The notes below the pieces were generated by a model, which was given only the letters and a program-made list of their open reading frames with translations, made no database searches and was not told where the DNA came from. The position numbers and the translations under genes are program-made. From Nitrospirota bacterium (GTDB taxonomy: Bacteria > Nitrospirota > Thermodesulfovibrionia > Thermodesulfovibrionales > Dissulfurispiraceae), in contig CAVPZX010000009.1 of assembly GCA_963710375.1 (NCBI GenBank), forward strand, positions 32,001-96,000: DNA of 64,000 bases, given 5' to 3'. Position 1 is the first letter of the stretch. Each line of letters starts with the position of its first letter. Of this stretch, positions 7,528 through 60,038 are shown piece by piece.

Positions 7528-8776
7528 TTACTCGTATATCTTCTCTCCTTCTGCGTCCGCATTTAGAGCATCTTCTTCAACATTACGGATGTCTTCTTTT
7601 GAAAGGACATTGAGGTATTCTTTATACCATTCGTTTTGTATGATGCTCTGCATGATTTCGTTGCTACCCACCCATATCATGGACAACCTGATATCTCGGA
7701 CAATGCGTTCGAGAGGGTAAACATTGGTGTAGCCAATACCACCCATTGTCTGCATACATTTGTTTGCTATATCCCATGCGGCTTCAGTGACGAACTTCTT
7801 GGATTCGGATACCAGGCGTCTTACTCTGTTCGGATGGGCTTTCCCAGAATCAACAGCTAGGCAAGTTGAGTATACCATTGACCGTGCGGTATCCAGTAGC
7901 ATAACGCAATCTGCTATTTTGAACCCCACTGCCTGGAAACTCTGGATTGGGACTCCGAATGCCTTTCGTTTGGAAGTATACATGGTCGCAATTTCTATTG
8001 CGGGTCTTACGGAACCTAGAGTCATGGCCGCTGTCCCAAGTCGTTCAGGAATCATCATCCTGACAAAGACATCAAAACCACCATTTATGCCATTCAACGC
8101 ATAGCGTTCCGGCACTCGAACATCTTTTAAAACGAGTCTACCAGCCCCACCGCCCCGTACCCCCATGAGACCATATATATATTTCGACTCGACGCCTTTG
8201 GTCCTAGGAACAATGAAGGCTGTCATGCGCTTGTGAGGAGGGGCATCAGGGTTAGTTACTGCATAGACAAGAAACCAATCTGCGCCTTCTGCGCCTACTA
8301 TAAAACGTTTCTGTCCATTTATGATCCAGTCATCACCATCTTTTTTTGCATAGGTCGTTGCGCCGAAAAAATCAGATCCGCCTCTTGGTTCAGTCAATCC
8401 TTCTGCTGCAAAAGTTTCCCCCTTTAGTAAGGGTATTACAACTGCCTGCTTCAGCTCTTTATTGCCGAACAGGGAGATTGCATCGCAAACTATATCAGCA
8501 CCCACACCCCATAGGCAGGCCAAAGAATAGCTTGCTACACCTACCTCCTCGGCAACTATTGCATCCTCCACCCAACCAAGGCCTCTTCCTCCTAATTCTT
8601 TAGGAATCCTTATGCCCAGCAAATTTCTTTTTCCTGCCTCTTGCAGATATTCTCGAGGAAACTGGACCTTCTCGGCATCCATGTCTAGTATGAGTCTGTT
8701 TAGGCACCCATTTTGTGAAGGCTCTTGCTTCATTTCGTAAATTTTTCTGTTCATCCGTCATGATGTAGTCGAACAC
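7528..8776 (-). CDS. Acyl-CoA dehydrogenase; apparent +1 frameshift at 8695
   Basis: AGGAGG then GTG at 8776 gives MFDYIMTDEQKNLRNEARAF; removing T8695 joins it to the main ORF (GLTEPRGGSD, INGQKRFI, GGIGYT), 415 aa. Confidence 0.85.
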
Positions 8777-9155
8777 TGTTCCTCCTACATAAAGAATTGT
8801 TGTTAAATTATTTATTTATGTTATAAATTTGTCAAGCTCTCTGATCAATACGAATTGACTCACAAAAAATGTTACCGAAGGGAGGAGCGTGAAACAAGTA
8901 GGCATAAATAACTATTCCACCAACCACGGCTTCTAGTAACAGGCTCAGCAAAAACTGACTCGACGGTAGCGCGGCAGGAAAGAAAAATATCGACAGCAAA
9001 TACGGAACCGTCGAAGGGTCAGACCGGGGTCTAGACTTGATTATTGATTTTCGTTAGGAAGCAAAAAGGTATTTTGAGGGTTTCAAACGGAAACCAACGA
9101 CGTCGCTGACATGTCTCATGTGCCACTCTCAGGTCAAGTGAGAACCCTTCACGAT

Positions 9156-10301
9156 TCACTTTTCACGCTTCAAGAGTTTTGTGCGCTTGTAAAAAAAAGG
9201 TTTCAAAACCTTTAATCCGACAACTCCTGCTACAGGTTTGACCAGCCACGACGCGACGTCCCTGCTCCCCAGGCACCGCTTGCAATAAGGGTGCTCAAGC
9301 CTGTAGTGTCTGAAGCCTTCGACTATTTTCCCAAGCCTGTCAGATGAAAGTATCTCTTCCAGCGATGAGTCATAAAGGTTTCCCACTTTCGTATTTCCGT
9401 CAAAATCCATGCAGCAGAGTACTACATCGCCGTTATAGAGAATGCCAAAGTGGTCGCGCATCCCGAAACAGTAACCGCCCCAGGCTTCACGAATTTTTTC
9501 ACCCTCAAATGCATGTCCCCAATCATCCAGCACATATGTTTCGAAAAAAACATTCGGGTATATTTCAACCACATTCCATTTGTAGGACACAAGGTTTTCG
9601 ATGCCCCGCATTGCCGCATCCCGGTCTTCCTGCGCAACTCCTAACAGTTCATATATACGCCCGGCCCAGAAAGCGAATGTCTTCCTTAGTTCTTCTGAGG
9701 AGGAGATGACATTTATCATGCCTATCCTGTCCTCCATTGCTTTTTTCCTGAAACGGGTATTTAAAAACCGGAATTTAAATACGGTATCCCTGTGTTTCAC
9801 ATGGTATGCCCGGAAGAATTCGAGTATGCCCTCAAGGTAGGATTCAAAGGTCCTGGTCCCGGCCTTCCTGTAAGCGAACGAACGTTCATCGGGTGTCTGG
9901 AGTGAAATATCAATCTGGTGGAGCTCATAATCGAGGAGCCGCCTGCCTATCTCACCACCGAGACCTCCCCCATTGGTAGTAAGTCCGACGTTCATCTTTT
10001 GCCTTTTTGCATGGTCAAGTATCTCGAAAAAGTCCTTATGCAGCGTCGGCTCGCCCATGACATGAAAAGTGATCTTTTCACAGATGTTGCGGGCCTTGAG
10101 TTCAGTAATAATCTCTTTGGCAAGCCCTGTCTGCATGTAGCCGTAGGGCCGTTTCATTGCAGACTTGGGGCAAAAGATGCAATTGAAATCACAAATATTA
10201 GTCAGCTCAATATGTACGCGCTTGAGCGGGATTTCTATGTGCCCGAATGTTTTCATGACATATTTATTATACCTTATGACAGACTTTTCCATAAATTGCA
10301 T
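9156..10301 (-). CDS. Radical SAM/SPASM-domain protein (start uncertain, possibly 10256)
   Basis: CDFNCIFC (CxxxCxxC), GEPTLH, C-terminal C...GDVVLCC...GNL...CKRC. Confidence 0.85.
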   Translation of the reverse strand: MQFMEKSVIRYNKYVMKTFGHIEIPLKRVHIELTNICDFNCIFCPKSAMKRPYGYMQTGLAKEIITELKARNICEKITFHVMGEPTLHKDFFEILDHAKRQKMNVGLTTNGGGLGGEIGRRLLDYELHQIDISLQTPDERSFAYRKAGTRTFESYLEGILEFFRAYHVKHRDTVFKFRFLNTRFRKKAMEDRIGMINVISSSEELRKTFAFWAGRIYELLGVAQEDRDAAMRGIENLVSYKWNVVEIYPNVFFETYVLDDWGHAFEGEKIREAWGGYCFGMRDHFGILYNGDVVLCCMDFDGNTKVGNLYDSSLEEILSSDRLGKIVEGFRHYRLEHPYCKRCLGSRDVASWLVKPVAGVVGLKVLKPFFYKRTKLLKREK

Positions 10302-10355
10302 AACATTTCTGCCTTGTGTTAGTATATTTACATTTAATTTAGAGGAGAGTGTTTT

Positions 10356-10823
10356 ATGGAAGAGAAGATACAGGCGCTAATAAAAGATTTCAGAGAACAC
10401 GAGGGGAATATAGTCTCCCTTTTGCAGGAAACACAGGAAGCATTCGGGTACGTTCCGGAAGAAGCGGTTTTTCGTCTTTCAAAAGAGCTTGACATTCCTG
10501 CAAGCAACTTCTTCGGCGTCGCCACTTTCTATGCCCAATTTTACCTCAAACCGAGAGGGAAAAATATTATTACCGCCTGTTGCGGCACCGCCTGCCACGT
10601 AAAAGGCTCAGAACGACTGATAAACAATCTAAAGGAAAGCCTGCACCTGACCGGTGAGGAAAACACCACCCCTGACATGAAATTTACCCTTGAGGAGGTA
10701 GCGTGTTTCGGCGCCTGCAGCATCGCGCCCGTGGTTATATTCAACAAAAAAGTACACGGCAATATGACACTCGAAAAGGTAAATAAGGAAGTCAGGATGC
10801 TGAGGGGGGGCTCCCATGAATAA
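10356..10823 (+). CDS. NuoE/HydC-like [2Fe-2S] subunit
   Basis: GVATFY, CCGTACH, VACFGACSIAPV. Confidence 0.9.
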   Translation: MEEKIQALIKDFREHEGNIVSLLQETQEAFGYVPEEAVFRLSKELDIPASNFFGVATFYAQFYLKPRGKNIITACCGTACHVKGSERLINNLKESLHLTGEENTTPDMKFTLEEVACFGACSIAPVVIFNKKVHGNMTLEKVNKEVRMLRGGSHE

Positions 10824-13800
10824 AAACATAACGGTGAAGGTATGCATGGGGACCGGAGGTATAGCCGCCGGCGGCGCTGAAGTGCTTCAGGCATTTCAAT
10901 CAATAATGGCAGAAAAAAACATCTCTGCCGAGTTCAAGAAAGGGTGCCACATGCACAAAGTGGGATGCCGCGGGTTCTGTGCGAGGGACGTTCTTGTGGA
11001 CGTCATTGTTGATGACCAGAGGACTACCTACCAGTATATACAGCCCGTAATGGTTCAGCGGATTATCGATGACCATATTATCGGCGGCAGTCCGGTCGCA
11101 GCATGGCAGGTAACGGAAGAATACCACAGATTCCACGGGAAACAGGTGAAGGTGGTCTTATCGGATTGCGGCCATATTGATCCTGAAGACATCGAAGCCT
11201 ACCGCTCAGTAGACGGTTATTCCGCTGTTGAAAAAGTGTTCTCATCAATGACTCCTGCGGAAGTCATTGATGTAATGAAAAAATCGGGACTGCGCGGCCG
11301 CGGAGGCGCCGGCTTCCCGACAGGCGTTAAATGGGAGGCCTGCCAAAAAGCCCCTGGTGATCAGAAATACATTATCTGCAATGCCGATGAGGGCGATCCC
11401 GGGGCCTTTATGGACCGGGCTGTTATAGAGGGGAACCCTCACGCTGTAATAGAGGGAATGGCAATAGGAGCCTATGCCATCGGCGCAACACAGGGATATG
11501 TATATATACGGGCTGAATATCCGCTTGCTGTGGAGCGGTTGAAAAAGGCAATTACATCGGCACGGGGAAAAGGATACCTGGGTAAAAATCTTTTCAATAA
11601 AGGATTTGATTTCGATATTAAGATAAAGCTCGGCGCTGGAGCTTTTGTGTGCGGTGAGGAAACTGCTCTCATCGCCTCTATTGAGGGGCAGCGTGGAATG
11701 CCAAGGGCAAAGCCACCCTTCCCTGTCCACAAAGGATTATGGGGTAAGCCGACAGTCATAAACAACGTCGAGACACTGGCAAACATCCCTTACATTCTCA
11801 GGAAGGGAGCCGACTGGTTTTCGTCCTACGGAACGGAAAAATCAAAAGGCACCAAGGTCTTCGCTCTTACCGGCAAAGTGAAGAATACCGGACTTGTCGA
11901 AGTGCCCATGGGCATTGCCCTCAGAGAGATCATCTATGATATCGGCGGCGGGACAGAAAATAACAAGAAAGTGAAGGCGGTCCAGACAGGCGGCCCATCG
12001 GGAGGCTGCATCCCTGCCGACATGCTGGACCTCACCGTGGATTACGAGTCACTCGCAAAGGTCGGCTCTATTGTCGGTTCGGGCGGCATGGTTGTCCTCG
12101 ATGAAGATAACTGCATGGTAGATGTGACAAAGTATTTCCTTAACTTTACCCGGAACGAGTCATGTGGGAAATGCGTTCCCTGCAGGATCGGCACCAAACG
12201 TCTCCTGGAAATTCTCGACAGGATAACCAAGGGGCTCGGCAAAGAGGGTGACCTTGAGCTTATAGAAAAACTGAGCAATGACATAAAAGCCACATCGCTT
12301 TGCGGACTTGGGCAGACCGCTCCCAATCCGGTACTGAGCACCCTTAAGTATTTCAGGCATGAGTATGAAGAGCACATAAAAAATAAAAGGTGTCCTTCGC
12401 TCGCCTGCAAGGAGATAGTATCGTCGTCCTGTCAGCATACCTGTCCGATAGGTACCGAGGCCTCGGTTTACGCCGCCTTGATTGCTCAAGGGCGCTTTGA
12501 AGAGGCCATTCAAGTCATAAGAAAGGGGAACCCCCTGGCAAGTGTCTGCGGGCGGGTTTGCCATCATCCGTGCGAATCAAAGTGCAAGGCCGCTGAATCA
12601 GGTAAACCAATCGCTGTGAGGGCACTGAAGAGGTTTGCCGCGGATTATGCGCACGAAAAGGGCATTCAGGTGCAGTTCCCGAAGGAGGGAAGGAAGGAAC
12701 AGAAGGTCGCTGTTGTGGGCTCCGGACCCGCAGGCTTGACCGCGGCTTATTTCCTTTCTCTAAAAGGATATGATGTCACGGTCTTTGAGGCAAAACCCGT
12801 GGTGGGCGGAATGCTAAGAGTGGCGATACCCGAATACCGCCTGCCCCGCGAGGCCTTTGATATCGACGTCGATTTCATGGCGAACGCCGGGGTAAAATTC
12901 CAGACAGATACTGTACTGGGGAAGGACATTTCAATTGACAGCCTTTTCGAAGAGGGATATAAGGCCATATTTGTAGCTATCGGCTCACATAAATCGATGA
13001 AACTCGGAATACCGGGTGAAGATACTGAGGGTGTAATGCCTTCGCTGGCATTCCTCGAAGCTCTGCATCTTTGTAAAGAGTTGCATCCCGGCAAAAGGGT
13101 AGTGGTGGTTGGAGGCGGCAACTCGGCGGTAGATTCGGCCAGGGCCGCGTATCGTATGGAAGGCGTAGAGAAGGTCATCTTACTGTACAGAAGGACCCGC
13201 TCGGAGATGCCCGCATTTAAGGATGAAGTTGATGCTGCTCTGGAAGAGGGTATCGACATTCAATTCCTGACTGCGCCAACCAGGATTATAAGCAAGAACG
13301 GCAAATTCAATGGCGTGAGCTGCATCCGCATGAAACTGGGAGATGCAGATAAGAGTGGGAGGGCAAGGCCAGTCCCAATTGAAGGTTCTGAGTTTACCAT
13401 TGAAGCAGACACGCTCATTGCAGCAATCGGGGAAAAACCTGATACATCCTGCATTGATGAAACCTCGAAGATCGCGGTCTCCGCAAGAAGCACTCTGGTC
13501 GTTGATCCTGATACCCTTGCAACAGCCAGAGAAGGCGTCTTTGCCGGCGGCGATGCAGTGACTGGACCGAATACGGTTGTCTGGGCAATGCACGCCGGGA
13601 AAAAGGTGGCTGAATCGATCGACAGGTATCTCAGCGGAGAAACTTTGCCTATAAGGCATGAGTTAACAAGACCCTCCCGTTATATAGAACCTGTCGAGTT
13701 GACCGATGAGGAGATCATGGAGTTAGAGCGCCCTGAAATGCCGTCTCTTTCCCCGGAAGAGAGAAGGAAGAATTTCAAGGAAGTGGACTTGGGGTTTACG

Positions 13801-13932
13801 GAGGAGATGGCGGTTAAAGAAGCCCGTAGATGCCTCAGATGTGAATTGAGCACATTGGATGGCCAGAACGCTGTCCAGGAAATGAAACGGAAGAAAGTAA
13901 AACAGATGGAGAAGGAGTTAAAGGCATGCTGA
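10816..13932 (+). CDS. NuoF/HydB-like FMN/NADH subunit fused to a GltD/NfnB-like FAD-NAD(P)H oxidoreductase
   Basis: GLRGRGGAGFP, NADEGDPGAFMD, CGEET, GGPSGG, SCGKCVPCRIG; then CQHTCP, CGRVCHHPCE, GSGPAG, GGGNSAVD, YRR, AGGD, EARRCLRC. Confidence 0.9.
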   Translation: MNKNITVKVCMGTGGIAAGGAEVLQAFQSIMAEKNISAEFKKGCHMHKVGCRGFCARDVLVDVIVDDQRTTYQYIQPVMVQRIIDDHIIGGSPVAAWQVTEEYHRFHGKQVKVVLSDCGHIDPEDIEAYRSVDGYSAVEKVFSSMTPAEVIDVMKKSGLRGRGGAGFPTGVKWEACQKAPGDQKYIICNADEGDPGAFMDRAVIEGNPHAVIEGMAIGAYAIGATQGYVYIRAEYPLAVERLKKAITSARGKGYLGKNLFNKGFDFDIKIKLGAGAFVCGEETALIASIEGQRGMPRAKPPFPVHKGLWGKPTVINNVETLANIPYILRKGADWFSSYGTEKSKGTKVFALTGKVKNTGLVEVPMGIALREIIYDIGGGTENNKKVKAVQTGGPSGGCIPADMLDLTVDYESLAKVGSIVGSGGMVVLDEDNCMVDVTKYFLNFTRNESCGKCVPCRIGTKRLLEILDRITKGLGKEGDLELIEKLSNDIKATSLCGLGQTAPNPVLSTLKYFRHEYEEHIKNKRCPSLACKEIVSSSCQHTCPIGTEASVYAALIAQGRFEEAIQVIRKGNPLASVCGRVCHHPCESKCKAAESGKPIAVRALKRFAADYAHEKGIQVQFPKEGRKEQKVAVVGSGPAGLTAAYFLSLKGYDVTVFEAKPVVGGMLRVAIPEYRLPREAFDIDVDFMANAGVKFQTDTVLGKDISIDSLFEEGYKAIFVAIGSHKSMKLGIPGEDTEGVMPSLAFLEALHLCKELHPGKRVVVVGGGNSAVDSARAAYRMEGVEKVILLYRRTRSEMPAFKDEVDAALEEGIDIQFLTAPTRIISKNGKFNGVSCIRMKLGDADKSGRARPVPIEGSEFTIEADTLIAAIGEKPDTSCIDETSKIAVSARSTLVVDPDTLATAREGVFAGGDAVTGPNTVVWAMHAGKKVAESIDRYLSGETLPIRHELTRPSRYIEPVELTDEEIMELERPEMPSLSPEERRKNFKEVDLGFTEEMAVKEARRCLRCELSTLDGQNAVQEMKRKKVKQMEKELKAC

Positions 13933-16593
13933 ACCTAACTATAAACGGCAAGAAAATAACTGCGAGCGAGGGATCAACGGTTCTTGATGCTGCAAAAGCG
14001 TCAGGGATTTCGATCCCAACACTCTGCCATCATCCCAAGCTCACACCATTCGGCGGCTGCAGGCTCTGCATCGTGGAGATAAAGGGGATTCCTCGCCCCG
14101 TCACCTCGTGCACCACACCGGTAAGCGAAGGGATGGAGGTAACGACCTCATCGCCCAAAATCGAAGATTTGCGCAAAACCGTGCTGGAACTTATCCTTTC
14201 CGACCACCCAGCTGATTGCATGATATGCGAACGCGCAGGCGACTGCACACTGCAGGAAATGGCGTATTCTTACGGCATCAAGGAAAACAGGTTCGCCGGG
14301 GAGAGAAGGGTTTACGCAAAAAAGGACGCCAATCCGTTTCTCGAAAGGGACATGGAGAAGTGCATCATGTGCGGAAGATGTGTAAAGGTCTGCGACGAGG
14401 TGCAGGGCGTGGGAGCCATTGACTTTGCTTACAGGGGTTTTAAATCAAAAGTATGCCCGCCGTATGAGAAGCAGCTTGATTGCGAATTCTGCGGTCAATG
14501 TGTATCTGTGTGCCCCACCGGGGCGCTTACCGGTAAGATGTGGTCTCAGAGAGGACGGCAGAAAGACGTAAAAGAAACTGATACGGTCTGCGCCTATTGC
14601 GGCACGGGTTGCAATATAACGCTTAATGTAAAGGACAATAAAGTCATACGGGTCACTTCAAAACCGGATACATGGAATGAGGGCTGGCTGTGCGTAAAAG
14701 GGAGGTTCGGATACGGATTCATCAACAGCCCCGACCGCCTTACAAAACCTCTCATCAAGAGGGATGGCAGGTTTGAAGAAGCCTCGTGGGAAGAGGCTTA
14801 CGAATGCGCTGCAAAAAGGCTGAACAATATAAAAACAGCCCACGGTCCCGATGCGATCGGCGGATTATCTTCAGCGCGTTGCACCAACGAAGAAAATTAC
14901 GCCTTTCAAAAAATGATCAGGGCTGCGGTGGGAACGAATAATGTCGACCACTGCGCCCGTCTCTGACACGCGCCAACCGTGGCCAGTTTGGCCGCAATAT
15001 TCGGTTCCGGCGCAATGACCAACTCCATTAAAGAAATAGAAAATATGGAGGTGATTTTCATTATCGGCTCCAACACAAAGGAGACGCATCCGGTCATAGC
15101 AAATTGGATGATCAAGGCGTACAGAAAAGGGGCCAAAATAATAGTGGCTGATCCCCGTATGGTGCCGATGACCCGTTTTGCCGATACTGTGCTGAACCTG
15201 AAACCGGGCACGGATATCGCCCTGATCAGCGCAATTGCCCATGTCATCATTAAAGAAGGTCTTCATGACAAAGCCTTTATTGAAGAGAAAGCTGAGGGCT
15301 TTGAAGAAATGAAGAGATCGGTCGAAAAATATACTCCCGAATATGCTGAAAAAATAACCGGCATAAGCAAAGACGCTATCATAAGGGCAGCCCGTCTTTA
15401 CGGCAGCTCACGGAAGGCCGCCATTTTCTACACAATGGGAATAACCCAGCATACCTGCGGCACTGAGAATGTCAACGCGGCTGCAAACCTGGCGATCCTC
15501 ACAGGCAATATCGGGAGGGAATCTACCGGAGTGAACCCCCTAAGGGGACAAAATAATGTCCAGGGTGCATCAGATGCGGGTTGCCTGGCGAATGTTTACC
15601 CGGGATACCAAAAAGTGGACGCTCCTGAAACAAAGGCGAAGTTTGAGAAGGCATGGGGCGTGCCTCTCTCTCCGAAGCCGGGACTAACGGCAACAGAAAT
15701 GATACCTGCAGCCCTTGAAGGAAAATTAAAGGCGATGTATATAATGGGAGAAAACCCGGTCATTACCGACCCAAATACCCACCATACAGTAGATGCCCTG
15801 GATAAACTCGATTTTCTGGTCGTGCAGGACATCTTTTTGACCGAGACAGACTGCCCTGGCAGATGTGGTATTCCCGTCAACCTGCTTTGCTGAAAAAGAC
15901 GGCACATTCAGCAATACTGAAAGAAAGGTCCAGAGAGTGCGGAAGGCGGTTGAGCCGCCGGGTGAAGCGCGGGCCGACCTCTCCATAATCATGGAAATGT
16001 CAAAAAGGCTCGGGTATACAATGGACTATAAATCCCCTGAAGATGTCCTGATCGAGTTCGGACAGGTATGGCCAAACCTTGCAGGGATAACGTACCAGCG
16101 TATTGATAGGGAAGGCATTCAGTGGCCATGCCCTGACCGTAACCACCCGGGGACCCCTTATTTATACAAGGCCGGGTTCCCTAAAGGGAAAGTACGTTTC
16201 TCTCTTGTGCCCTTCACAAACCCTGACGAGTCAACTGATAAGGAGTATCCTTTTGTACTGACCACCGGAAGGAATCTGTACCAGTATCATTCCGGCTCTA
16301 TGACCAGACGTGTGGCCCAGATCGAGGCTCACGCCGGCGAACCCTATGTGGAGATCAGCCCCATAAACAGCAAGAATCTCCACATCAAAAACGGGGACAT
16401 GTTGGTCGTTACGTCACGCCGCGGCAGCATCAGAATAAAAGCACGGGTTACGTCAATGGTGCAGGAAGACACGGTATTCATTCCCATGCATTACCACGAG
16501 GCAGCGGCAAATGTTATAACAAATGATGCCCTCGATGCCACCTGCAAAATACCTGAATTTAAGGTGTGTGCGGTGAAAATAGAAGCGGCTTAA
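13926..16593 (+). CDS. fdhF: Formate dehydrogenase alpha subunit, selenocysteine-containing (UGA 14964-14966); apparent +1 frameshift at 15850
   Basis: N-terminal 2Fe-2S/4Fe-4S domains, CAYCGTGC, NVDHCARL-UGA-HAPTVA in frame, RGQNNVQG, AEKDGTFSN, IPEFKVCAV; three ORF-track pieces join into 888 aa after removing A15850. Confidence 0.9.
14979..14995 (+). promoter_or_regulatory. Bacterial SECIS-like hairpin for fdhF
   Basis: GUGGCCA-GUU-UGGCCGC stem-loop starting 12 nt after the in-frame UGA. Confidence 0.65.
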
Positions 16594-16595
16594 TG

Positions 16596-16654
16596 CAGGC
16601 AAGAGGTTATGGGCAATAGGAAAAGACTTTTCTTTACTTATAGCCCATCGCCTG
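16596..16654. repeat. Inverted tandem-heptamer hairpin element A (degenerate GGCAATA type)
   Basis: Left CAGGCAAGAGGTTATGGGCAATAGG, right TATAGCCCATCGCCTG. Confidence 0.55.
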
Positions 16655-16670
16655 TTTTTTGGAGTATTTT

Positions 16671-17192
16671 ATGATTACTGGAAGACCCTTATTTACTACC
16701 GAGCAAATACATGAGAAGGTCGTTGAATTAGCCGGGGCAATATACCGCGACTATAAGGGGAAGGAAGTCCTCGCAGTCGGGATACTGAAAGGAGCGTTTA
16801 TTTTTTTCGCAGATCTCATCAGGGCCCTGAACCTTCCTGTTACTGTAGATTTCATTGTCGCTTCGAGCTATTTTAAAAATGTTACCACAGGTGAAACTAC
16901 CGTATATTATGAGCCCAGGGAGACTGTTCAGGGAAAGAACGTCCTGCTGATAGACGATATAATTGATACGGGGATCTCACTTAATTACATACGGGAGAAA
17001 ATCTTGTCGCTGAGACCCGAGAGTCTCAAAATTTGCGTACTGCTCGATAAAAAAGAAAGACGCATCACTAACGTGCCGGTGGATTATGTGGGATTTAATA
17101 TTCCCAACCAGTTCGTTGTGGGGTACGGCCTCGACTATGAAAACAGATACAGAAACCTGCCTTATATAGCCGCATTCAAAAAAGAAACTTAA
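16671..17192 (+). CDS. hpt: Hypoxanthine phosphoribosyltransferase
   Basis: GILKGAFIFFADL, VLLIDDIIDTG, FVVGYGLDY...YRNLPYI; GGAG upstream of ATG 16671. Confidence 0.92.
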   Translation: MITGRPLFTTEQIHEKVVELAGAIYRDYKGKEVLAVGILKGAFIFFADLIRALNLPVTVDFIVASSYFKNVTTGETTVYYEPRETVQGKNVLLIDDIIDTGISLNYIREKILSLRPESLKICVLLDKKERRITNVPVDYVGFNIPNQFVVGYGLDYENRYRNLPYIAAFKKET

Positions 17193-17196
17193 AATA

Positions 17197-17295
17197 CAGG
17201 TTCAGGCTAAGGTTAAGGTTAAGAAAAATTTAGGACACAAGCAAGAGAGCTATTCCCCTGGCCTCAACCTCAACCTTAACCTGAACCTTAGCCTG
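17197..17295. repeat. Inverted tandem-hexamer hairpin element B (AGGTTA type)
   Basis: Left CAGGTT CAGGCT AAGGTT AAGGTT AAG; right GGCCT CAACCT CAACCT TAACCT GAACCT TAGCCT G. Confidence 0.8.
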
Positions 17296-17314
17296 CCTTT
17301 TTTGGGAGGATTTT

Positions 17315-17686
17315 ATGTATGAATTGATGATAGAAACTGGTTTTGCCTCAGCGCATCAGCTTAGGGGATATAAAGGTAAATGTGAAAACCTGCATGGTCA
17401 CAACTGGAAAGTCCAGGTATTTGTGACCACTGACCGCCTTAATGAAATCGACCTGGCTATCGATTTTCACGAGCTGAAGCGGCTCACCAGCGAGCTGATT
17501 GCTCAAGTCGATCATACATGTCTGAATAATGTATTTCCCTTCACTGAAAGAAATCCATCTTCGGAAAATATCGCGCGGTGGGTATTCGAGTCGTTACGCA
17601 AAAGGCTGGCGGAATACAAGGTAAATGTGTCTGCGGTAACAGTGTGGGAATCTGAAACCGCGTCAGCAACATATTATGAAGAATAG
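17315..17686 (+). CDS. queD: 6-carboxy-5,6,7,8-tetrahydropterin synthase
   Basis: FASAHQLRGYKGKCENLHGHNW, NPSSENIA, VWES. Confidence 0.93.
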   Translation: MYELMIETGFASAHQLRGYKGKCENLHGHNWKVQVFVTTDRLNEIDLAIDFHELKRLTSELIAQVDHTCLNNVFPFTERNPSSENIARWVFESLRKRLAEYKVNVSAVTVWESETASATYYEE

Positions 17687-17775
17687 GCAATGGGCAATAG
17701 GCTATAGGAAAGAGGTCATGAAACAACAAAAATCTTTTTCTTTTCCTATAGCCTATAGCCTATCGCCTATTGCCT
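17684..17775. repeat. Inverted tandem-heptamer hairpin element C (TAGGCAA type)
   Basis: Left TAGGCAA TGGGCAA TAGGCTA TAGGAAA; right TTTCCTA TAGCCTA TAGCCTA TCGCCTA TTGCCT. Confidence 0.85.
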
Positions 17776-17784
17776 GGTTTTGAT

Positions 17785-19119
17785 ATGGACCGGGCTTTCG
17801 CAGTAAAACTATTGGATATAGCCCTTGCACGGGGCGCTGATGAAGCCGAAGTATATATGAAAGCGTCAAAAAACCTCGGAATCGAGGTCAAAGGCCAAGA
17901 GATAGAGACGCTCGAATCCTCTATGACCGCAGGATACGGTGTCAGGGTAATCAAAAACAAACAGTTGGGGTTCTCTTATTCTACAGACCCCGCCGAAATG
18001 TCCAGTGTAGCGGATGCGGCGCTCTCTGTTGCCGGCTATGCAGAACCGGATGATAATCTTGGATTAGCTTTGCCGTTGCAGGCCAGTGGTGTAGATATCT
18101 TCGACAGACGCATAGCCTCAATCACAGAGGATGAAGCTATAGAGCACACCATGCGCATTGAGAAAGCGGCCCTCGATGCTGACGGGCGAATTAAGAAGAT
18201 CAGAAAGGCTGCAGGGGACTTCGGCACGAATGATACATATATTGTCAACTCAAAAGGCGTTGATGCCTTCTACAGTGCTACCGGCTGCTCGGCACATATT
18301 ACTGTAGTAGCCGAAGATGGCGCCGAAAGCCAGCTGGGCTACGACTACGAGGGGAGCAGATTTCTGGATGAGGCGTCATTTGGCCGGGTTGGGAGCAATG
18401 CAGCAAAAAAGGCACTCCAACTTCTCGGTGCAAAAAAAATCTCTCCCATAAAGGGATTCATTCTTCTCGATAGTTCGGTGGCCGTGGAATTCCTTGGCAT
18501 ATTAGCTTATGCGCTGTCGTCGGAATCCGTTCAAAAGGGCAAATCCATGCTCGCGGGAAAAAAAGAAGAGCAGGTGATGAGTCCGCTGCTGAATATAATT
18601 GATAATGGTCTGCTTGCCGGCAAGCTCGGCAGTAAGCCTTTCGATGGCGAGGGTGTGCCGACAACCCGCAAGGCATTGATTGAAAAGGGCGTGCTGACGG
18701 GCTTTTTATATAATATCTATACGGCCCGTAAAGAGGGCGTCCAATCTACCGGCAACGCTGCAAGAGGCGGAGCCTTCGGGCTCCCCGGTGTCGGACCTAC
18801 TAACCTTTATGTAGAGCCGTCATTACCGGAGCACGCGCAGGAATTCCAAAAGCTTCTGAAGTCCATTGACAAAGGCCTTTACGTAATTGAGACCATGGGC
18901 ATGCATACGGCAAATCCTGTATCTGGAGAATTCTCTGTCGGAATATCGGGGTTATGGATTGAAAACGGAGTAGTGCGCTACCCCGTGAAAGAGGCGGCGA
19001 TATCAGGGACCGTGCTGGAATTGTTCAGGCAAGCGGTTATGATTGGCGATGATTTAAGATTTTATGGTAACATAGGTGCTTCAAGTATTCTGATTGAGTC
19101 AATAGATATAAGCTGTTGA
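17785..19119 (+). CDS. pmbA: TldD/PmbA family protein (PmbA/TldE-like)
   Basis: GADEAEV, GVRVI, PFDGEG, STGNA, NPVSGEFS, PVKEAAISG. Confidence 0.88.
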   Translation: MDRAFAVKLLDIALARGADEAEVYMKASKNLGIEVKGQEIETLESSMTAGYGVRVIKNKQLGFSYSTDPAEMSSVADAALSVAGYAEPDDNLGLALPLQASGVDIFDRRIASITEDEAIEHTMRIEKAALDADGRIKKIRKAAGDFGTNDTYIVNSKGVDAFYSATGCSAHITVVAEDGAESQLGYDYEGSRFLDEASFGRVGSNAAKKALQLLGAKKISPIKGFILLDSSVAVEFLGILAYALSSESVQKGKSMLAGKKEEQVMSPLLNIIDNGLLAGKLGSKPFDGEGVPTTRKALIEKGVLTGFLYNIYTARKEGVQSTGNAARGGAFGLPGVGPTNLYVEPSLPEHAQEFQKLLKSIDKGLYVIETMGMHTANPVSGEFSVGISGLWIENGVVRYPVKEAAISGTVLELFRQAVMIGDDLRFYGNIGASSILIESIDISC

Positions 19120-19136
19120 AATACTGGAGGATGTTC

Positions 19137-20294: not shown

Positions 20295-20295
20295 C

Positions 20296-20352
20296 GGTTT
20301 CGTAAAAAGTCCATATGCTGCGTAACGCAGCATATGGACTTTTTACGAAACC
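20296..20352. repeat. Perfect 27-bp inverted repeat between convergent genes (REP/MITE-like; likely bidirectional terminator)
   Basis: GGTTTCGTAAAAAGTCCATATGCTGCG-taa-CGCAGCATATGGACTTTTTACGAAACC. Confidence 0.85.
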
Positions 20353-20759
20353 TATTTTTTTGCCGGTGTCTTTAGCCGTGCAAAATTATATTTTTTCAGA
20401 ATTTTTCTGAAGTCCTTTCTGATCTCAACCCATACAGGATGAATAGGACAGGTTTTGCTGCGACCGCAAAGCGTATGATCAAGGGCGCAGACGTTCACTG
20501 AAAGGTCATGCTCTATTGCCTCCACAACATCAAGCAGGCTTATCGCCTCGGGAGGCCTGCCAAGCTGAAAGCCTCCCTTAACACCGCGAAATGACTTAAC
20601 GAGCGATGCACGGGCAAGTTTCTGTACAATTTTCGCCAGGAAGCTCTTCGGTATCTGCATTTCCCTCGCGATATCTTCGACCATGCTTATTTCTCCCTGT
20701 TTGCTCGAAAGGTACAGGATACACCTGATCGCGTAATCTGTTTCACGAGTGATTTCCAT
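20352..20759 (-). CDS. Rrf2-family transcriptional regulator with three Cys (Fe-S type)
   Basis: ITRETDYAIR, SFRGVKGGF, CALDHTLCGRSKTC. Confidence 0.9.
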   Translation of the reverse strand: MEITRETDYAIRCILYLSSKQGEISMVEDIAREMQIPKSFLAKIVQKLARASLVKSFRGVKGGFQLGRPPEAISLLDVVEAIEHDLSVNVCALDHTLCGRSKTCPIHPVWVEIRKDFRKILKKYNFARLKTPAKK

Positions 20760-20793
20760 ATATCAGTTACCTATCCTTTTTTATACTTAGGGC

Positions 20794-21201: not shown

Positions 21202-21271
21202 TTGACCATCCCCCTCATTATATTAGTTTCCGCTTTTTGTTCCCAATTATCAGCACGCTAAAATCATCTCC

Positions 21272-21311
21272 ATCAGGACTAATATTATCCAGTTTCAAAT
21301 AGATTTGTCAA
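21272..21311 (-). promoter_or_regulatory. Probable promoter and Rrf2-type operator upstream of hemerythrin-rrf2
   Basis: Minus-strand TTGACA (21306-21311); imperfect palindrome ATCAGGA-CTAATATTA-TCCAGTT over the -10 region. Confidence 0.4.
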
Positions 21312-21333
21312 CAACTTTAATACCGGTAAGGTC

Positions 21334-23032
21334 TCAAAACCTTCCAGAGCGGATGATGGAGATAATAAGCCATATGCCCATGAAAAATGCAAAAGTAAAC
21401 GCGGAAATGGCCAGAATGGAAAAACCGAAAATAGTCGGACCGACACCGGCTGTATGCATTATGGCAGAACTCAAAATCATGGCGCTCACTACCATCGCAA
21501 ACGCAATGCGGTTGCTTGAGCGGTCAATATCTTTTGTGAATTCGGGCAGATTGACGTGATACATTTTTACATGTATGTCGTCCTTCAGTATCTTCTTAAT
21601 TATTTGCTTCATCTGCCGCGGCAACATAGATACAAAATCACTGAATTCCCATATATTCTCTTTAGCCGTTTTGTAAAATCTCGAGGGGCTTATCCTCTTC
21701 TGGATAAGTTTGTCGGCATAAGGCTCTGCAGCGGCAAAAAAATTGAACTTGGGATCAAGCTGCCTGCCTATACTTTCGAGTATGAGCATTGCTTTATCGA
21801 TAAGGAGCAGCTTCTGAAGGCGCTCTTAAATTGTGTTTAATCGCCAGATGGGTGATCGTATCAAGATAGAGGGCAAAGTCCACTTCCTGCAAGGTGATGT
21901 CGTAAATCGGTTCCAGAAAATCGACGAGATCAGACTTGAATTCTCTCCTGAATATTTCGATATCTGTGTGTTCGGGAATTATGCCGAGTGCAATATACTG
22001 ATCAATGATACCGTCGAAATCCTTTCTTATTAGGGCCAGGAAAGTACTGGCCATCGTATCCTTCATCTCATTGGAAACCCTGCCTACGATGCCGAAATCT
22101 ACAAACGCAATGGCGCCGGACGGCATTACAAGTATGTTGCCGGGATGGGGATCAGCATGGAAAAATCCGTCTTCCAGTATCTGTTTAAAAAAGGCGTTGA
22201 CCCCTATTTCGGCCAGATGGGCCCTGTCAACACCCATCCTTTCGATCTCAGCTATATTGTCGATCCGTATGCCGTCTATCCATTCCATTACAAAGGCCTT
22301 TTCTGTCACATATTCGGCGTAAATTTTCGGTATATGTATGTTGGGGTCCTGTTCAAAATTTTTTTTGAACCTCGAACAGTTCCTTGCCTCCTCAACAAAA
22401 TTCATCTCTTTCCTGATAGTCCGGGAAAATTCGTCTACAATACCGAGAGGATTGAAAAACCTGCTATCAGGTACATACCTGTCAAGCAGCCTGGCAATCG
22501 TAAAAAGAATGCTGATATCCGCTTCGATGCGTTCCCTGATTTCAGGACGCTGAACTTTCACGATAACATCGGAGCCGTCGATCAGCGTGGCCCTGTGCAC
22601 CTGGGCAATGGATGCGGCGGCAACAGGCTTTTCGTAAAACGCGCTGAAAGTATTTCCGAGCGGACACCCGAACTCAGTCTCGATGATCCGTTTGGCCTCG
22701 TGTGCGGGAAAGGGGGGTACATCATCCTGCAATTTCTTAAGTTCATCGGCAAACTGGACAGTGATCAAATCAGGCCTGGAAGAAAGGAGTTGTCCAAGCT
22801 TTATAAAGGTTGGGCCGAGATCGGCAAAGGCCATCCTTAAACGACCGGGAACATTCGGACTCTTCAAGGCAGGCCAGGCGCCGAAAGACCGCAGCCGTTT
22901 TTTGAAAGGGATATACCTGCCGAGGTGAATCTGTTCGATTATTTGGCCGAAACCGTATTTAAGAAATACGTTTATTATCTGCTGCAGCCTTCTTGCAGAT
23001 TTATAGGTACGTGAAAACCTAGAAGTATCCAC
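21334..23032 (-). CDS. UbiB/AarF (ABC1) atypical kinase; apparent +1 frameshift at 21812-21813
   Basis: LGPTFIKLGQLLS, AAASIAQVH, VKVQRP, FFHADPHPGN, DFGIVG; removing one T joins the two ORFs (APSELLLIDKAML). Confidence 0.88.
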
Positions 23033-23043
23033 CTGAATAGCTG

Positions 23044-23367: not shown

Positions 23368-23386
23368 ATAATCCTCCTTCTAACTA

Positions 23387-26443: not shown

Positions 26444-26464
26444 ACCCTTCCTCCTTTTACAAAC

Positions 26465-27081: not shown

Positions 27082-27085
27082 CTGT

Positions 27086-28112
27086 TTATTTTCCTGCCTC
27101 AGCCTTCTCTTCCCGCTTCAGCCCGTATGCTTCGATTATTTTCTTCTCTATCTCAGCAGCCACAGAAGGATTATTCTTCAGGTATTCCCGCACATTGTCC
27201 CTGCCCTGTCCTATCCTGTTGCCGCCGTAGCTGTACCACGCGCCGGCCTTTTCAATAATGCCCTTTTCAGCCTCCGAGATCGATAATCTCTCCTGCCTTT
27301 GATATGCCCTCATTAAAATATATGTCAAACTCTGCCTGCCTGAACGGAGGGGCAACCTTGTTTTTCACAATCTTGACGCGGACACGTCCGCCAATTACCT
27401 CCTGGCCGTCCTTGAGGTTGTCGATCCTTCTGATATCAAGCCTCATTGACGAGTAAAACTTCAATGCATTTCCGCCTGTCGTCGTTTCAGGATTTCCGAA
27501 CATAACCCCTATTTTCATCCGTATCTGGTTGATGAATACTATTGTTGTCAGAGATTTTGAGATTGCCGCCGTCAGCTTTCTCATGGCCTGGCTCATGAGC
27601 CTTGCCTGCAGGCCGGGAAGCGAATCACCCATATCCCCTTCGATTTCAGCTTTCGGCACCAGCGCGGCAACAGAGTCCACCACCACTATATCGACAGCTC
27701 CGCTTCTGACTAGAGTTTCAGCAACTTCGAGTGCCTGTTCGCCCGTGTCCGGCTGAGATACCAAAAGGTCTTCAATATTAACACCGAGCCTTGATGCGTA
27801 ATTGATATCAAGCGCATGCTCTGCATCAATAAATGCGGCGACTCCTCCGGTTTTTTGCGCCTCAGCTATCGCCTTCAGCGCAAGAGTTGTCTTTCCCGAT
27901 GACTCAGGCCCATATATCTCGACAACTCTTCCCCTCGGCAAGCCGCCGATGCCGGTGGCAATATCCAGAGAGATTGAACCAGTAGATATAACCTGTATCC
28001 CTTCTGCCACGCCCCCTGAACCGAGACGCATTATGGCCCCTTTTCCGAAGTTTTTTTCGATCTGGGAAATTGCCACTTCCAGGGCCTTTACTTTATCCTT
28101 GTTCATCATCAC
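27086..28112 (-). CDS. recA: Recombinase RecA; apparent +1 frameshift at 27271-27272
   Basis: [30 protein letters not shown]; removing one base restores [20 protein letters not shown]. Confidence 0.97.
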
Positions 28113-51084: not shown

Positions 51085-52824
51085 ATGAACTTATTATCGG
51101 CACTACGTAAGAGAACATTTGTCTCTTTTATCCTGCTTGTCGCCATTCTGGCGGGCTTTTCCGGAGCTTATGCCTTACCTGATTCAAATATCCACATTAA
51201 AATCCTTGCCATTAACGACTTTCATGGCAGGCTGCCTGCAGGACACATGATTGGCAACCGCCCTGTGGGTGGGGCGGCAGTACTGGCATCATACCTCAAA
51301 GCTGCTGAACAGGGCATAGAGCACGACACCCTCATCGTTCATGCCGGTGATCAAGTGGGTGCATCGTCGCCGGTGTCAGGACTGTTGAAAGATGAGCCTT
51401 CAATCATGTTTATGAATACGCTGGCAAATAAGTATTGCCGATATAAAGGCGGCTTAGACCTCATATCTGCCTCAACAAGTCCGGGCCTTTTCGGGGACCC
51501 CAGGTGCAACATGGCAGCCACCATCGGCAATCACGAATTTGACAAAGGGGTGGACGAAATGATGCGCCTCATATTTGGCGGTAATCATCCCGACGGTCCC
51601 TTTCTCGAAAATCCCTGGCGGGGCGCTTTATTTCCCTATGTAGTATCAAATGTGGTCTATGCGAAAAATGGAAAGCACATCCTTCCTCCGTATGTCATCA
51701 AGAAGATAAACGGCTTGCAAATTGCGTTTATAGGCGCTGTGCTCAAGGACACACCCGGCATTGTCACTCCGTCTGCCGTGAAAGGCCTCACCTTTTTAGA
51801 TGAAGCAGAATCTATCAACAAGTGCATACCCGAACTCGGGGCCAAACATGTGAGTGCTATAGTTGTGCTGATACATCAGGGAGGCTACCAGACATCCTAT
51901 CAGGGCGACACACTTCAAGGAGAAAATGTCGATGGTCCCATCGCTGATATCGTTTCACGCCTGGATGATAAGGTCAACGTTGTCATATCAGGTCATACCC
52001 ACACATTCATCAACGCGTTTTTGAAAAATCGGCACGGCAAGGATATACTCGTTACCCAGGCTTATGCTTACAGCACCGCATACGCGGATATCGATCTGGA
52101 AATAGACCGAGCCACCAAAAATATTGTCAGGAAATCGGCATCCATTGTCACCACCTATGCCGACGCCGGCCCTGGACTGACCCCTGATCCTGAGGTTTCA
52201 AAACTCGTTGCAGCTGCTGAAGCAAAAGTCGGACCGATGATCCACCAGGTCGTCGGCCAGGCCACAACAGATATCACAGGAGAGCAAAACAGCGCAGGCG
52301 AATCCGCTCTTGGCAATCTGATTGCCGATGCCCAGAAGTCGTCCTTTGCCGCCGACTTTGCTTTCACAAACCCCGGCGGGATGCGTAGCGACGTCAAAGC
52401 TGGCGCTGTCACATGGGGTGTTATCTATGAGGTGCAACCCTTCAGCAATGATCTCGTAAAAATGACTCTGACCGGCAGCCAAATATATGATCTGCTTAAT
52501 CAGCAGTGGCAGCAGGGGCCTAATGAGTCGCGCCCGCGCATGCTCCAGATTTCCGGCCTTTCTTATATCTGGGACAGCACCCTCCCTGCAGGCAGCCGCA
52601 TAGTCAAGATATTCCGGAACGGCATCCCGATTGATCCTGCTGCCGAGTATACAGTCGTGGTAAACAGTTTCCTTGCCGGCGGAGGTGACGGTTTCAGTGT
52701 ACTTACCAAAGGCACCAGCCGGGCAACGGGTCCTGTTGATCTCGATGCAATGATAACCTATATCCGGAAATTGCCGCAGCCTTTTTCAGCAAAAATCAAC
52801 GGCAGGATCACAAGGGTTAAATAG
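51085..52824 (+). CDS. Exported bifunctional metallophosphatase/5'-nucleotidase
   Basis: Signal peptide, INDFHG, AGD, GNHEFD, GHTH, NPGGMR, FLAGGGDG. Confidence 0.92.
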   Translation: MNLLSALRKRTFVSFILLVAILAGFSGAYALPDSNIHIKILAINDFHGRLPAGHMIGNRPVGGAAVLASYLKAAEQGIEHDTLIVHAGDQVGASSPVSGLLKDEPSIMFMNTLANKYCRYKGGLDLISASTSPGLFGDPRCNMAATIGNHEFDKGVDEMMRLIFGGNHPDGPFLENPWRGALFPYVVSNVVYAKNGKHILPPYVIKKINGLQIAFIGAVLKDTPGIVTPSAVKGLTFLDEAESINKCIPELGAKHVSAIVVLIHQGGYQTSYQGDTLQGENVDGPIADIVSRLDDKVNVVISGHTHTFINAFLKNRHGKDILVTQAYAYSTAYADIDLEIDRATKNIVRKSASIVTTYADAGPGLTPDPEVSKLVAAAEAKVGPMIHQVVGQATTDITGEQNSAGESALGNLIADAQKSSFAADFAFTNPGGMRSDVKAGAVTWGVIYEVQPFSNDLVKMTLTGSQIYDLLNQQWQQGPNESRPRMLQISGLSYIWDSTLPAGSRIVKIFRNGIPIDPAAEYTVVVNSFLAGGGDGFSVLTKGTSRATGPVDLDAMITYIRKLPQPFSAKINGRITRVK

Positions 52825-53675
52825 CAAGATACTGTGCAGGGTTTTGTCTTATGCATTTCTTTATGATACCTTTATCGAACCCCATTTCAATCAGCCTGGA
52901 AGCTGCCTCCGGTATGCTCATGCTTCCACCCATGAGAGTGCCTCTGCTATCCGTAACGCCCAGGGGATGCATGGATTTTTTTGACTCCAGCACCGAATCG
53001 GAGACGATTATTATTCTTGCAGGATTCTTTACTTTAAATATCAAACCAATCGTTGCCTGATGGAGATGAAAGGGATCGGCAATGACTTCAATATAAACCT
53101 CCTGGTTGAGAAGTCCGAATCCCGCAATCCCCGGCTCGCGATGGTGAAAACATCGCATTGCATTAAAAATATGGGTAATGCCACGCGCACCTGCATGATA
53201 TCCGCTCTCAGCTTCACCATATGTTGCTGCCGAATGTCCCATGCTGGGAATAATCCCCTTATCAGCTATTTTTCGTATTATCGCCGCTGCGCCCTTCAGC
53301 CTCAGGAGCAATGGTGATAATTTTTACCATATCCTCAAATCCCTCTATCAGCTTTTGCAAATGGTATTCCGTCGGCTCAAGGAAAGCAGTTGCATCCAGC
53401 GCACCGCACTGTAAAGGATTCAGAAATGGCCCCTCAAGATGCAATCCTATGATCCTCGATTGAGTATCTGCCATGGCCTTCTGCAGCTCCATGGCATTTC
53501 TGACAACATCCATATGTTTTCTCATGACATTTATCTCTGCAGGGTAGATTGCAGGGACGATTTCGGCAACACCCAGGGCGCCATGTGCCGCTGCGATTGC
53601 CAGGATATCTTTTTCGTCAGGCATCCTTGTGTCGTACCCGCCGATACCGTGCGTATGAACATCGATAATTTTCAT
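52817..53675 (-). CDS. nagA: N-acetylglucosamine-6-phosphate deacetylase-like (short form); apparent +1 frameshift at 53300-53301
   Basis: DVHTHG, GLHLEGPF, TIAPE, GHS, THIFNAM, D..H, VSD; removing one base joins the two ORFs into 285 aa. Confidence 0.85.
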
Positions 53676-54738: not shown

Positions 54739-54743
54739 CTGCC

Positions 54744-57767: not shown

Positions 57768-57833
57768 AACCCCCTTCCCTGCTCTCCGCGGCGCCGCACA
57801 AGAACCATCTTTACCCCCAAAGAAGTATTAGTG

Positions 57834-58346
57834 TCAATTTTGGGAAAGCGTCAGCATATCCACTGTTTTCCCTATCAGTCTGTCCATGTCAAGGAGTATT
57901 ATCAGTCTGTCCTCCAGCTTTGCTATGCCCGTTATAAACTCCGTGCCTGCTTCAGCAGCCACCTGAGGTGTGGGATCTACTATGTCTGATGGAATCCTCA
58001 ATACCTCCGATACCGCATCAACTACAAGTCCGACCGTCATGCCTTGTACGTCTATTATCATTATTCTGGATTGTGCATCATTTTCCTTTGAATCAAGTCC
58101 GAATTTTTTCCTTAAATCTATTACCGGCATGACCTTACCCCTCAGGTTAATAACCCCCTCAACGTAGGAAGGCGCATTGGGCACCCTTGTTATTTCTTTC
58201 ATCCTGTTTATTTCCTGTACCTTCAGTATATCCACTGCATATTCCTCACCGCCGAGGCCAAAGGTCACAAGCTGCAGCAAATCGCTTCTCTTGCCTTGCG
58301 CTTTGACCACCACCAAAGAATCCTGCGTTGCTAATAATGCGTCCAT
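57834..58346 (-). CDS. cheW: Chemotaxis coupling protein CheW
   Basis: QLVTF, VQEI, GVINLRG, GLVVDAVSEV. Confidence 0.93.
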   Translation of the reverse strand: MDALLATQDSLVVVKAQGKRSDLLQLVTFGLGGEEYAVDILKVQEINRMKEITRVPNAPSYVEGVINLRGKVMPVIDLRKKFGLDSKENDAQSRIMIIDVQGMTVGLVVDAVSEVLRIPSDIVDPTPQVAAEAGTEFITGIAKLEDRLIILLDMDRLIGKTVDMLTLSQN

Positions 58347-58402
58347 TTAATACCTCCCGTGTCCTTTTCTATAATAGGCTTACCCCATTAATGACTTCCG
58401 TT

Positions 58403-60038
58403 TCAATTGACTCGAAAGTGGTTGACATCTGTTCTTAATTCTACAGCCATCTTTGACAAGTTAGACGATTCCTGCCCTATTTGACAGGACCCGGCACTCG
58501 TCTCCCTTGATACGGTTGCTATAACCTCTATGTCACCGCTTATCTGCTCCGATACTGTTGACATCTCCTCTGTTGCCGACGCTATCTGCTGCACCATGGC
58601 CTGCAGACCGTTAACGCTGTCAACTATTTTACGGAGACCGCCTCCAGCCTGGTTTGCAAGTTCCACCCCTACTTTGACCTTTTTTGTCCCCTCTCCCATC
58701 GAGACAACCGCCTTTTCAGTCTCTGCCTGTATCGCGGTTATCATTTCTCCTATTTCAGATGTCGAATGTGCGGTCTTTTCAGCAAGCTTCCTGACTTCGT
58801 CAGCTACTACAGCGAAACCTCTTCCCTGCTCTCCTGCGCGCGCCGCTTCTATGGCTGCATTCAGGGCAAGAAGGTTTGTCTGGTCCGCTATATCCTTAAT
58901 TACGCCGATTATCTCTCCTATCTGCTTGGAACGGTCGCCGAGGGCAGTCATGATTTTCGCCAGATCTTCCACAGTCGCCGATATCTCCTGCACTTCATTG
59001 ACTGTTTTGCTCACTATAAGCGCGCCATCCTCAGACTGTCTTTAATGTGTCTGCTGATGAAGTTGCTATGTCAGAGCTGTTTTTTGCTATATCGATAACG
59101 GTCTGTGACATCTCTACAGACGCTGTTGCCACCTGATTCGCCTTGTTCGCCTGCTCCTCTACTCTCTTTGTCATCTGGGTCACTGTCGCTGACAGTTCTT
59201 CCGATGACGAGGCAACATGGCTGGCAGTGTCTGAAAACTTCCCTATCATACCGCTTAGCGATTTCTTCATCATGTTCAGGGCCCTGGCTAAAGCGCCTAT
59301 CTCATCCTTTGATCTTACATCCAAATCCTCGCAGGTCAGGTCGCCTTCTGCAATCTTTCCGGCAACTTCAATGCCTTTATGCAATGGCAGGACTATGCTC
59401 CGTGTAATCAATATCGAAATTATTACAGCGAGCACAATTGCAATGCCGCCGATCATAAACATCAATAACACTGCATTTTTGTATGACTTCACTGCTTCTT
59501 CATAACGTTCCTGGTTGCGGAGTTTCTGATAGTTGCTCAACTCATCTGAATCCTCGATCAATTTGCGCACTGCCGGACGCGCTTCCCTGTTCATGAAATC
59601 GACAGCTTCACCGTTCTTGTTTGCCATAGCAAGATCTATCACTTTGTTGTTTAACGGCTTTACAGTTTCTGCTGCGGCCCGCACTTTTTCTACAGCCTCG
59701 CGGCCTTTAGTATCATCCTTAGGCGTCATTTCATCGACCTTTTTCAATCCCTCATCCCGTTTCATCCTGTCGTCGCCCATCACTTTTATCTGCTCTTGTC
59801 TCTTTCCAGGATCCGTTACCAGAAGTATGTTGCGTAAAGATATGGATATTTCACGAGTTCTGTTTGCTATATCTGTGGAATATTCCATGCGAGTATTGTT
59901 GATTTTGACGATCCGTTCAAGATGGTCCTGTATGCGACCCATGCTGTAGGTGCCGATGAAAAGCAAAACTATCATCAGTAAAGTGACTGCGCCAAACCCT
60001 AATCCCAACCTCATCCCGACTTTTAAGTTCTTAAACAC
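58403..60038 (-). CDS. Methyl-accepting chemotaxis protein (4HB sensor); apparent +1 frameshift at 59035
   Basis: GTG start after AAGGAGG; TM-4[42 protein letters not shown]; removing A59035 joins the ORFs. Confidence 0.9.

Follow-up and report, generated by a model that had tools for sequence, protein, structure and literature searches.

Why should six otherwise intact genes in one stretch of a bacterial genome each carry a single extra base in nearly the same short context? The stretch analysed here, called the window, comprises 64,000 nucleotides (positions 32001-96000 of contig C9, CAVPZX010000009.1) of the Nitrospirota assembly GCA_963710375.1. This assembly, G000 below, has 3.19 Mb in 9 contigs, ~47% G+C and 98.8% completeness. 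A sequence-only reading had ascribed the extra bases to consensus errors at an AGCT-core motif, modified by a methyltransferase encoded elsewhere, with scars of blunt cutting as a less likely alternative. We followed this up at the six sites and across the genome. The answer involves errors at SAGCTS (S = C or G) and a candidate M.PvuII-like methyltransferase gene on contig C2.

All six contexts were present as described (Table 1), and the gene labels fitted the NCBIfam matches flanking five of the breaks (formate dehydrogenase alpha, UbiB, RecA, NagA and methyl-accepting chemotaxis protein); for the acyl-CoA dehydrogenase the match lay in the downstream piece. That these are all the frameshifts of the window stood in part. 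Comparison with congener proteins, covering 53,505 of the 64,000 bases, gave frame changes only at 15850, 21812, 27271, 53300 and 59035 and near 700. The last was seen with congener G008 alone and was assigned to G008 by coding score, a type of filter with at least one wrong assignment (C9:47850). At the DNA level, congeners at ~85-94% identity lacked the extra base at five sites, and 8695 lay outside the congener alignment rows. The effect is partial, as had been noted: 45 SAGCTS sites in the window were intact, giving an error rate of 6/51 (12%). A random single-base deletion in the window yields SAGCTS with a probability of 0.0046; as the motif had been picked post hoc, more weight falls on the genome-wide tests. 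Contig C9 was apparently richer in SAGCTS errors (6/51 in the window versus ~4% overall), and it is also covered by more reference genomes.

The public runs containing DNA of the organism are soil metagenomes. Their contigs were compared with window positions 8001-28000 in four runs from two studies; over this stretch and G000:C1:83501-103500, five runs were compared in total, and both stretches were picked because errors were present there. Runs X1 and X2 were flagged as possible source samples, and X3 came from another study and year. Contigs, not reads, were compared, and rare variants drop out of contigs. The extra bases at 8695, 15850, 21812 and 27271 were absent from every run contig covering them, and the long run contigs listed differed from the window stretch by 0-3 other letters. 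The other differing rows were 9032, 9048 and 9062 (in X1, where the contig is a short second one, in X3 and in part in X4), 20339 (inside a repeat, X1 alone) and 25800 (X4 alone). These four extra bases are one-letter assembly errors, as the artefact claim had it, and the alternative of scars is refuted at these sites. The extra bases at 53300 and 59035, for which the support comes from congeners, are likely errors as well. As a class, the errors are almost certainly artefacts. An ~80-base dispersed intergenic repeat of inverted character was also observed (window 27004-27100, 17200-17300, 20290-20350 and 23415-23445); it has many copies in G000 and the congeners, and it interrupts run contigs.

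Frameshift contexts were tabulated from a congener DNA alignment that covered 1.08 Mb of G000. Rows with <78% identity or <300 bases, with a second gap at <=30 columns, or with flanks of <75% identity were removed before counting. Relative to the congeners, G000 had 110 isolated extra bases, many of which reflect true divergence between species in intergenic DNA. When these were ranked blind to any motif, CAGCTG came first (15 vs 0.43 expected), CAGCTC/GAGCTG second (13 vs 0.62) and GAGCTC fifth (5 vs 0.16); the third and fourth places apparently went to displaced versions of these events. ACAACT and GACGAC, also high in the ranking, were read from their contexts as shifted forms of CAG-T-CTG events. 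Words of the form SAG-N-CTS held 33 of the 110 extra bases, against a background of 1.1%. When off-centre events were included, 40 events repaired to SAGCTS (883 intact sites), whereas the remaining NAGCTN words, with 2487 sites, accounted for 5 (odds ratio 22.5, p 3e-18). The expected AGCT-type enrichment was thus found, but it is concentrated at SAGCTS, and a motif of any AGCT core was ruled out. CAGCTC/GAGCTG and CAGCTG belong to the motif as proposed, and GAGCTC, missed earlier, belongs too; the non-palindromic CAGCTC/GAGCTG contributed 15 events at 504 sites. Most errors consisted of a single inserted base in the middle of AG^CT. The extra-base pattern seen in the window held, but some errors were off-centre and single-base deletions also occur at motif sites. 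Of 81 missing bases, 6 fell at SA-CTS or SAG-TS words, which is close to the ~3 of the background, but a congener had exact SAGCTS in 4 of the 6.

The frameshift signal was also scored over the whole of G000 in a reference-free manner. It was found at 98 of 3657 SAG-N-CTS words versus 39.8 expected, and at 56 of 5126 A/T-flanked control words versus 55.8 expected. The score recovered 26 of the 33 congener-based SAG-N-CTS events. This perhaps corresponds to ~75 central insertions in genes and ~100 errors in all, at ~4% of sites. A reference-free Viterbi frameshift finder had been dropped for its low sensitivity (on C9 it made 3 calls, of which one was inside the window), and a first sliding score was dropped owing to noise from natural gene overlaps; the targeted score was used instead. 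In a k-mer count of G000, the inserted 7-mers were at most weakly over-represented genome-wide. SAG-N-CTS words showed no excess of signal in congener G003 (1.58 Mb; 10/1665 vs 15.6 expected) or in G008 (0.92 Mb; 9/963 vs 9.9 expected), either of which may have been sequenced on a different platform. Depletion of SAGCTS in G000 did not exceed that in these two genomes, which fits a recent arrival of the system.

Four predictions were set beforehand for G000:C1:83501-103500 and then compared with four runs. Three were borne out in 4/4 runs: a missing G whose return restores CAGCTC, an extra base inside GAGCTC, and an altered word that the reference-free score had picked out. At this third site the true word was GTCGAC, misread as GTTCAAC; the prediction had been GTCAAC. 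Repeat rows aside, the two run-compared stretches showed no listed change at 23 intact SAGCTS, 99 other AGCT, 100 CCWGG and 129 GATC words.

The methyltransferase had been expected outside the window, and the C2 gene appears to fit this expectation by its likeness to M.PvuII. The closest solved structure to its 389-aa product was M.PvuII (1boo; E 1.7e-101 over residues 13-300; next best 4e-13), with an identity of ~50% as counted on the match line. The product matched PF01555 (E 1.3e-36) and contained TSPPF at 46 and DPFAGS at 262, which we take to be the SPPF catalytic motif and the DPF-G motif that binds SAM (S-adenosylmethionine), respectively. The gene lies in an island of ~7 kb and 43.0% G+C after the tmRNA (transfer-messenger RNA) gene, together with a Rep-like gene, an MTaX1-HNH nuclease gene directly downstream and a phage-type integrase gene; a search for the other edge of the island gave no exact 22-base copy of the 3' end of tmRNA. 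Methyltransferases of this type were found in 0/9 congeners and in 3/67 family members (E 1e-40 or better). The methyltransferase and its MTaX1-HNH partner occurred together in 59 of 83 homolog loci. In four loci (L188, L193, L203 and L207), the methyltransferase or partner homologs had in-frame stops or frame changes, which may reflect inactivated copies or errors. None of the gene breaks or stops in the 83 homolog loci fell at SAGCTS, the amount of DNA being too small for a test. In the part of the source consulted, the predicted role of MTaX1 is potentially to discriminate modified DNA (PMC10853773).

A second error motif, GTCGAC, has its own matching system in G000, a XamI-family endonuclease gene beside that of an Eco57I-type methyltransferase. 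Words derived from GTCGAC held 5 of the 110 extra bases versus a background of 0.15% (p 7e-7), with one case confirmed as GTCGAC by run contigs, and gave 16/652 versus 7.1 expected in the reference-free score. GTYRAC had been a candidate and was replaced by GTCGAC; GTTAAAC and GTCAAAC words were not enriched. The XamI family was found in 2/10 genomes of the genus and not in G003 or G008. XamI presumably recognises GTCGAC, a specificity that a literature search did not confirm. GTCGAC was the most depleted 6-mer in G000, with an observed/expected ratio of 0.33 versus 0.82 in G003 and 0.83 in G008, and the 6-mer most lost in aligned DNA (167 lost, 30 gained in G000 vs G003/G008). In codon phase 0, silent C>T changes at GTCGAC numbered 30 versus 13 amino-acid-changing G>A changes (24:5, 14:0 and 14:1 for control words). 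From this silent C>T excess, the loss of GTCGAC appears for the most part real, and substitution errors may account for some of it. As for gains, the 6-mers most gained in G000 mostly contained CTAG (CTAGGC, 60 gained vs 18 lost), and CTAG was the most avoided 4-mer; avoidance of CTAG may be relaxing in the G000 lineage.

The errors may be explained as follows. The C2 methyltransferase would methylate the inner cytosine of SAGCTS at N4, giving N4-methylcytosine (m4C). This base would disturb the native long-read signal, which would lead to a wrong consensus at ~4% of SAGCTS sites. M.PvuII makes m4C at the inner cytosine, immediately next to the AG^CT centre to which most errors map. Contigs of up to 1.07 Mb suggest a long-read assembly, and native nanopore sequencing is the likely platform. 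The GTCGAC errors likely arise in the same way from the XamI-family restriction-modification pair. We consider it highly probable that base modification caused the errors, and probable that this C2 enzyme and m4C were responsible. We infer the SAGCTS methylation, the m4C mark, the enzyme and the platform alike, and the enzyme-to-motif link comes from one genome.

Several observations weigh against this explanation. Modification is read from errors, not from signal. M.PvuII itself recognises CAGCTG only. CAGCTG was avoided in 80 pooled homolog loci (observed/expected 0.37) and CAGCTC was not (1.10), a weak point given that the loci are related to each other. G000 also has at least eight other DNA methyltransferase genes. 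A XhoI-family system is present, yet CTCGAG showed no error excess (17/1637 vs 17.8 expected) and was ruled out as an error motif; the presence of a system is thus no guarantee of a footprint. Words of the deletion type showed no enrichment in the reference-free score (177/17414 vs 181.8 expected). The fourth prediction, at L103:6631 (GAG-G-CTG), was unchanged in run contigs, indicating genuine differences among the 40 congener-based events. The G003/G008 control also loses force if sequencing or polishing differed for these genomes, and the completeness of G008 is only 74%.

The alternative that survives best keeps modification as the cause and assigns it to another enzyme or mark, such as the 5-methylcytosine (m5C) methyltransferase at G000:C5:474780-476000, or to two enzymes splitting CAGCTG and GAGCTC. 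G000 has at least nine DNA methyltransferase genes in the four families searched, with Dam-type and other families outside the search, and the partner of the C5 enzyme belongs to no Pfam or PADLOC family. On the other hand, CAGCTC/GAGCTG is affected too, for which one SAGCTS enzyme is simpler, and both the M.PvuII likeness and a published m4C SAGCTS motif favour the C2 gene. We regard this alternative as unlikely. In a second alternative, no methylation is involved and the basecaller or polisher is biased by the sequence context of unmodified SAGCTS. This is more improbable still, as two congeners with contigs of 1.9 Mb showed no excess, the effect ends sharply at A/T flanks, and for each of the two error motifs G000 encodes a matching enzyme, which searches of G003 and G008 did not yield. 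Least credible by far are real scars of blunt AG^CT cutting and error-prone repair, fixed in the strain or a subpopulation: the breaks do lie at the centre of a restriction-type palindrome, a candidate nuclease gene adjoins the methyltransferase gene, 53300 and 59035 lie outside the run-contig comparison, and a minor subpopulation could be lost from contigs, but run contigs, those of X1 and X2 included, have none of the 6 SAGCTS changes at which they and the assembly differ, a search of G000 (98.8% complete) gave no Ku gene, and the GTCGAC error joined an insertion with a substitution, so that the run contigs and the Ku result defeat this reading at four sites.

The further restriction-modification genes of G000 are listed with the features above in Table 1. 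CTCGAG was depleted alike in G000, G003 and G008. The m5C methyltransferase gene on C5 faces a 247-aa gene within an integrase-bearing element.

Table 1. Error sites, affected genes and restriction-modification features. Positions without prefix refer to the window; C1 to C6 are other contigs of G000. Congeners named or counted under evidence lack the extra base.
Feature	Position	Strand	Evidence or remark
GAG[T]CTG, extra base 8695 in GAGCTG	8692..8698	+	run contigs without base 4/4
Acyl-CoA dehydrogenase gene, broken near start by 8695	~7528-8776	minus	family match, downstream piece only scanned
CAG[A]CTG, extra base 15850 in CAGCTG	15847..15853	+	run contigs without base 4/4; 4 congeners
Formate dehydrogenase alpha-like gene, broken by 15850	14979-16593	plus	TIGR01591 positions 135-424 and 431-672 on two pieces
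CAGCT[T]C, extra T 21812-3 in CAGCTC	21808..21814	+	run contigs without base 3/3 covering; 5 congeners (21811-15)
UbiB-like gene, broken by 21812-3	21334-23032	minus	NCBIfam match
CAG[C]CTC, extra C 27271-2 in CAGCTC	27268..27274	+	run contigs without base 4/4; 5 congeners (27271-3)
recA, broken by 27271-2	27086-28112	minus	TIGR02012 positions 1-274 and 276-320 on pieces
CAG[C]CTC, extra C 53300-1 in CAGCTC	53297..53303	+	4 congeners by DNA, G005 with exact CAGCTC; 5 by protein
nagA, broken by 53300-1	52817-53675	minus	NCBIfam match
CAG[A]CTG, extra A 59035 in CAGCTG	59032..59038	+	G002 with CAGCTG by DNA; G002 and G007 by protein
Methyl-accepting chemotaxis protein gene, broken by 59035	58403-60059	minus	NCBIfam match
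M.PvuII-like methyltransferase, 389 aa	G000:C2:522189-523358		outside window; structure-database and Pfam match
MTaX1 + HNH_2 nuclease gene	G000:C2:523355-524362		directly downstream of methyltransferase
Island of ~7 kb after tmRNA gene	G000:C2:519942-527345 (L104:9942-17345)		43.0% G+C
XamI-family endonuclease (PF09572) + Eco57I-type methyltransferase (PF07669)	G000:C2:852376-854889 (L163:151-2664)		RE_XamI E 1.9e-119
XhoI-family endonuclease + PF01555 methyltransferase	G000:C3:40181-41825 (L093)
m5C methyltransferase (474780-476000) facing 247-aa gene	G000:C5:474130-476000 (L096)		247-aa gene without Pfam/PADLOC match; in integrase-bearing element
Type ISP-like fusion methyltransferase	G000:C1:129331-132438
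N6_Mtase	G000:C6:91870-92805
534-aa PF01555 protein	G000:C5:62000-63604
Second m5C enzyme	G000:C5:55455-56666
Type II-like N6 enzyme	G000:C2:1006843-1008087

Modification-mediated errors in nanopore assemblies have been published (Chiou et al. 2023, PMC10687267; Lohde et al. 2024, PMC11610573). As far as the parts consulted go, both works resemble the present case in describing strain-specific systematic errors at short motifs linked to methyltransferase content, corrected there by short reads or amplification. They differ in that their errors are mainly mismatches at GCAGC, GCTGG, RACG/CGTY and the like, whereas those of G000 are mostly single-base insertions at SAGCTS, on a platform that we deduce. 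No direct report of assembly errors at SAGCTS or CAGCTG was found in the literature, in a search that was thin on subscription papers.

The motif itself has precedents. M.Ble402III and M.Ble401III of Beggiatoa leptomitoformis are type II enzymes with SAGCTS as target and m4C as mark (PMC4675945, PMC5920184), and excerpts of another source give SAGCTS for a Burkholderia strain and for Robbsia andropogonis, two Burkholderiaceae (PMC10589681). M.Ble402III shares the identical degenerate motif with G000, read there from SMRT (single-molecule real-time) kinetics and here from errors; the likeness is one of motif only. M.PvuII makes CAG-m4C-TG, according to the portion of PMC2614495 consulted. M.PvuII and the C2 enzyme both belong to PF01555; the latter has ~90 extra C-terminal residues and a target that would be wider. 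Its partner is MTaX1-HNH and not the PvuII endonuclease. The module also departs from the PvuII restriction-modification system proper, which is limited to CAGCTG, in that the errors of G000 extend to CAGCTC and GAGCTC. A XamI-family type II system is present, as a RE_XamI gene beside that of an Eco57I-type methyltransferase.

The class of artefact and the motif are thus already published, and G000 is a further instance with a plausible enzyme. An estimated ~100 genes in G000, recA among them, appear broken yet are very probably intact, and pseudogene calls in this assembly are unsafe. Without raw signal, both a degenerate motif of methylation and an enzyme as candidate could be read off a finished assembly here, and an MTaX1-HNH module thereby gains a specificity that can be tested. 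More tentatively, at somewhat less than even odds in our judgement, the error footprint may report the target and mark (SAGCTS, m4C) of a widespread mobile module of M.PvuII-like methyltransferase and MTaX1-HNH nuclease, in a genome holding two systems of different ages. If so, the recent SAGCTS system would have left errors without loss of sites, and the older XamI system errors together with a genuine, lineage-specific loss of GTCGAC.

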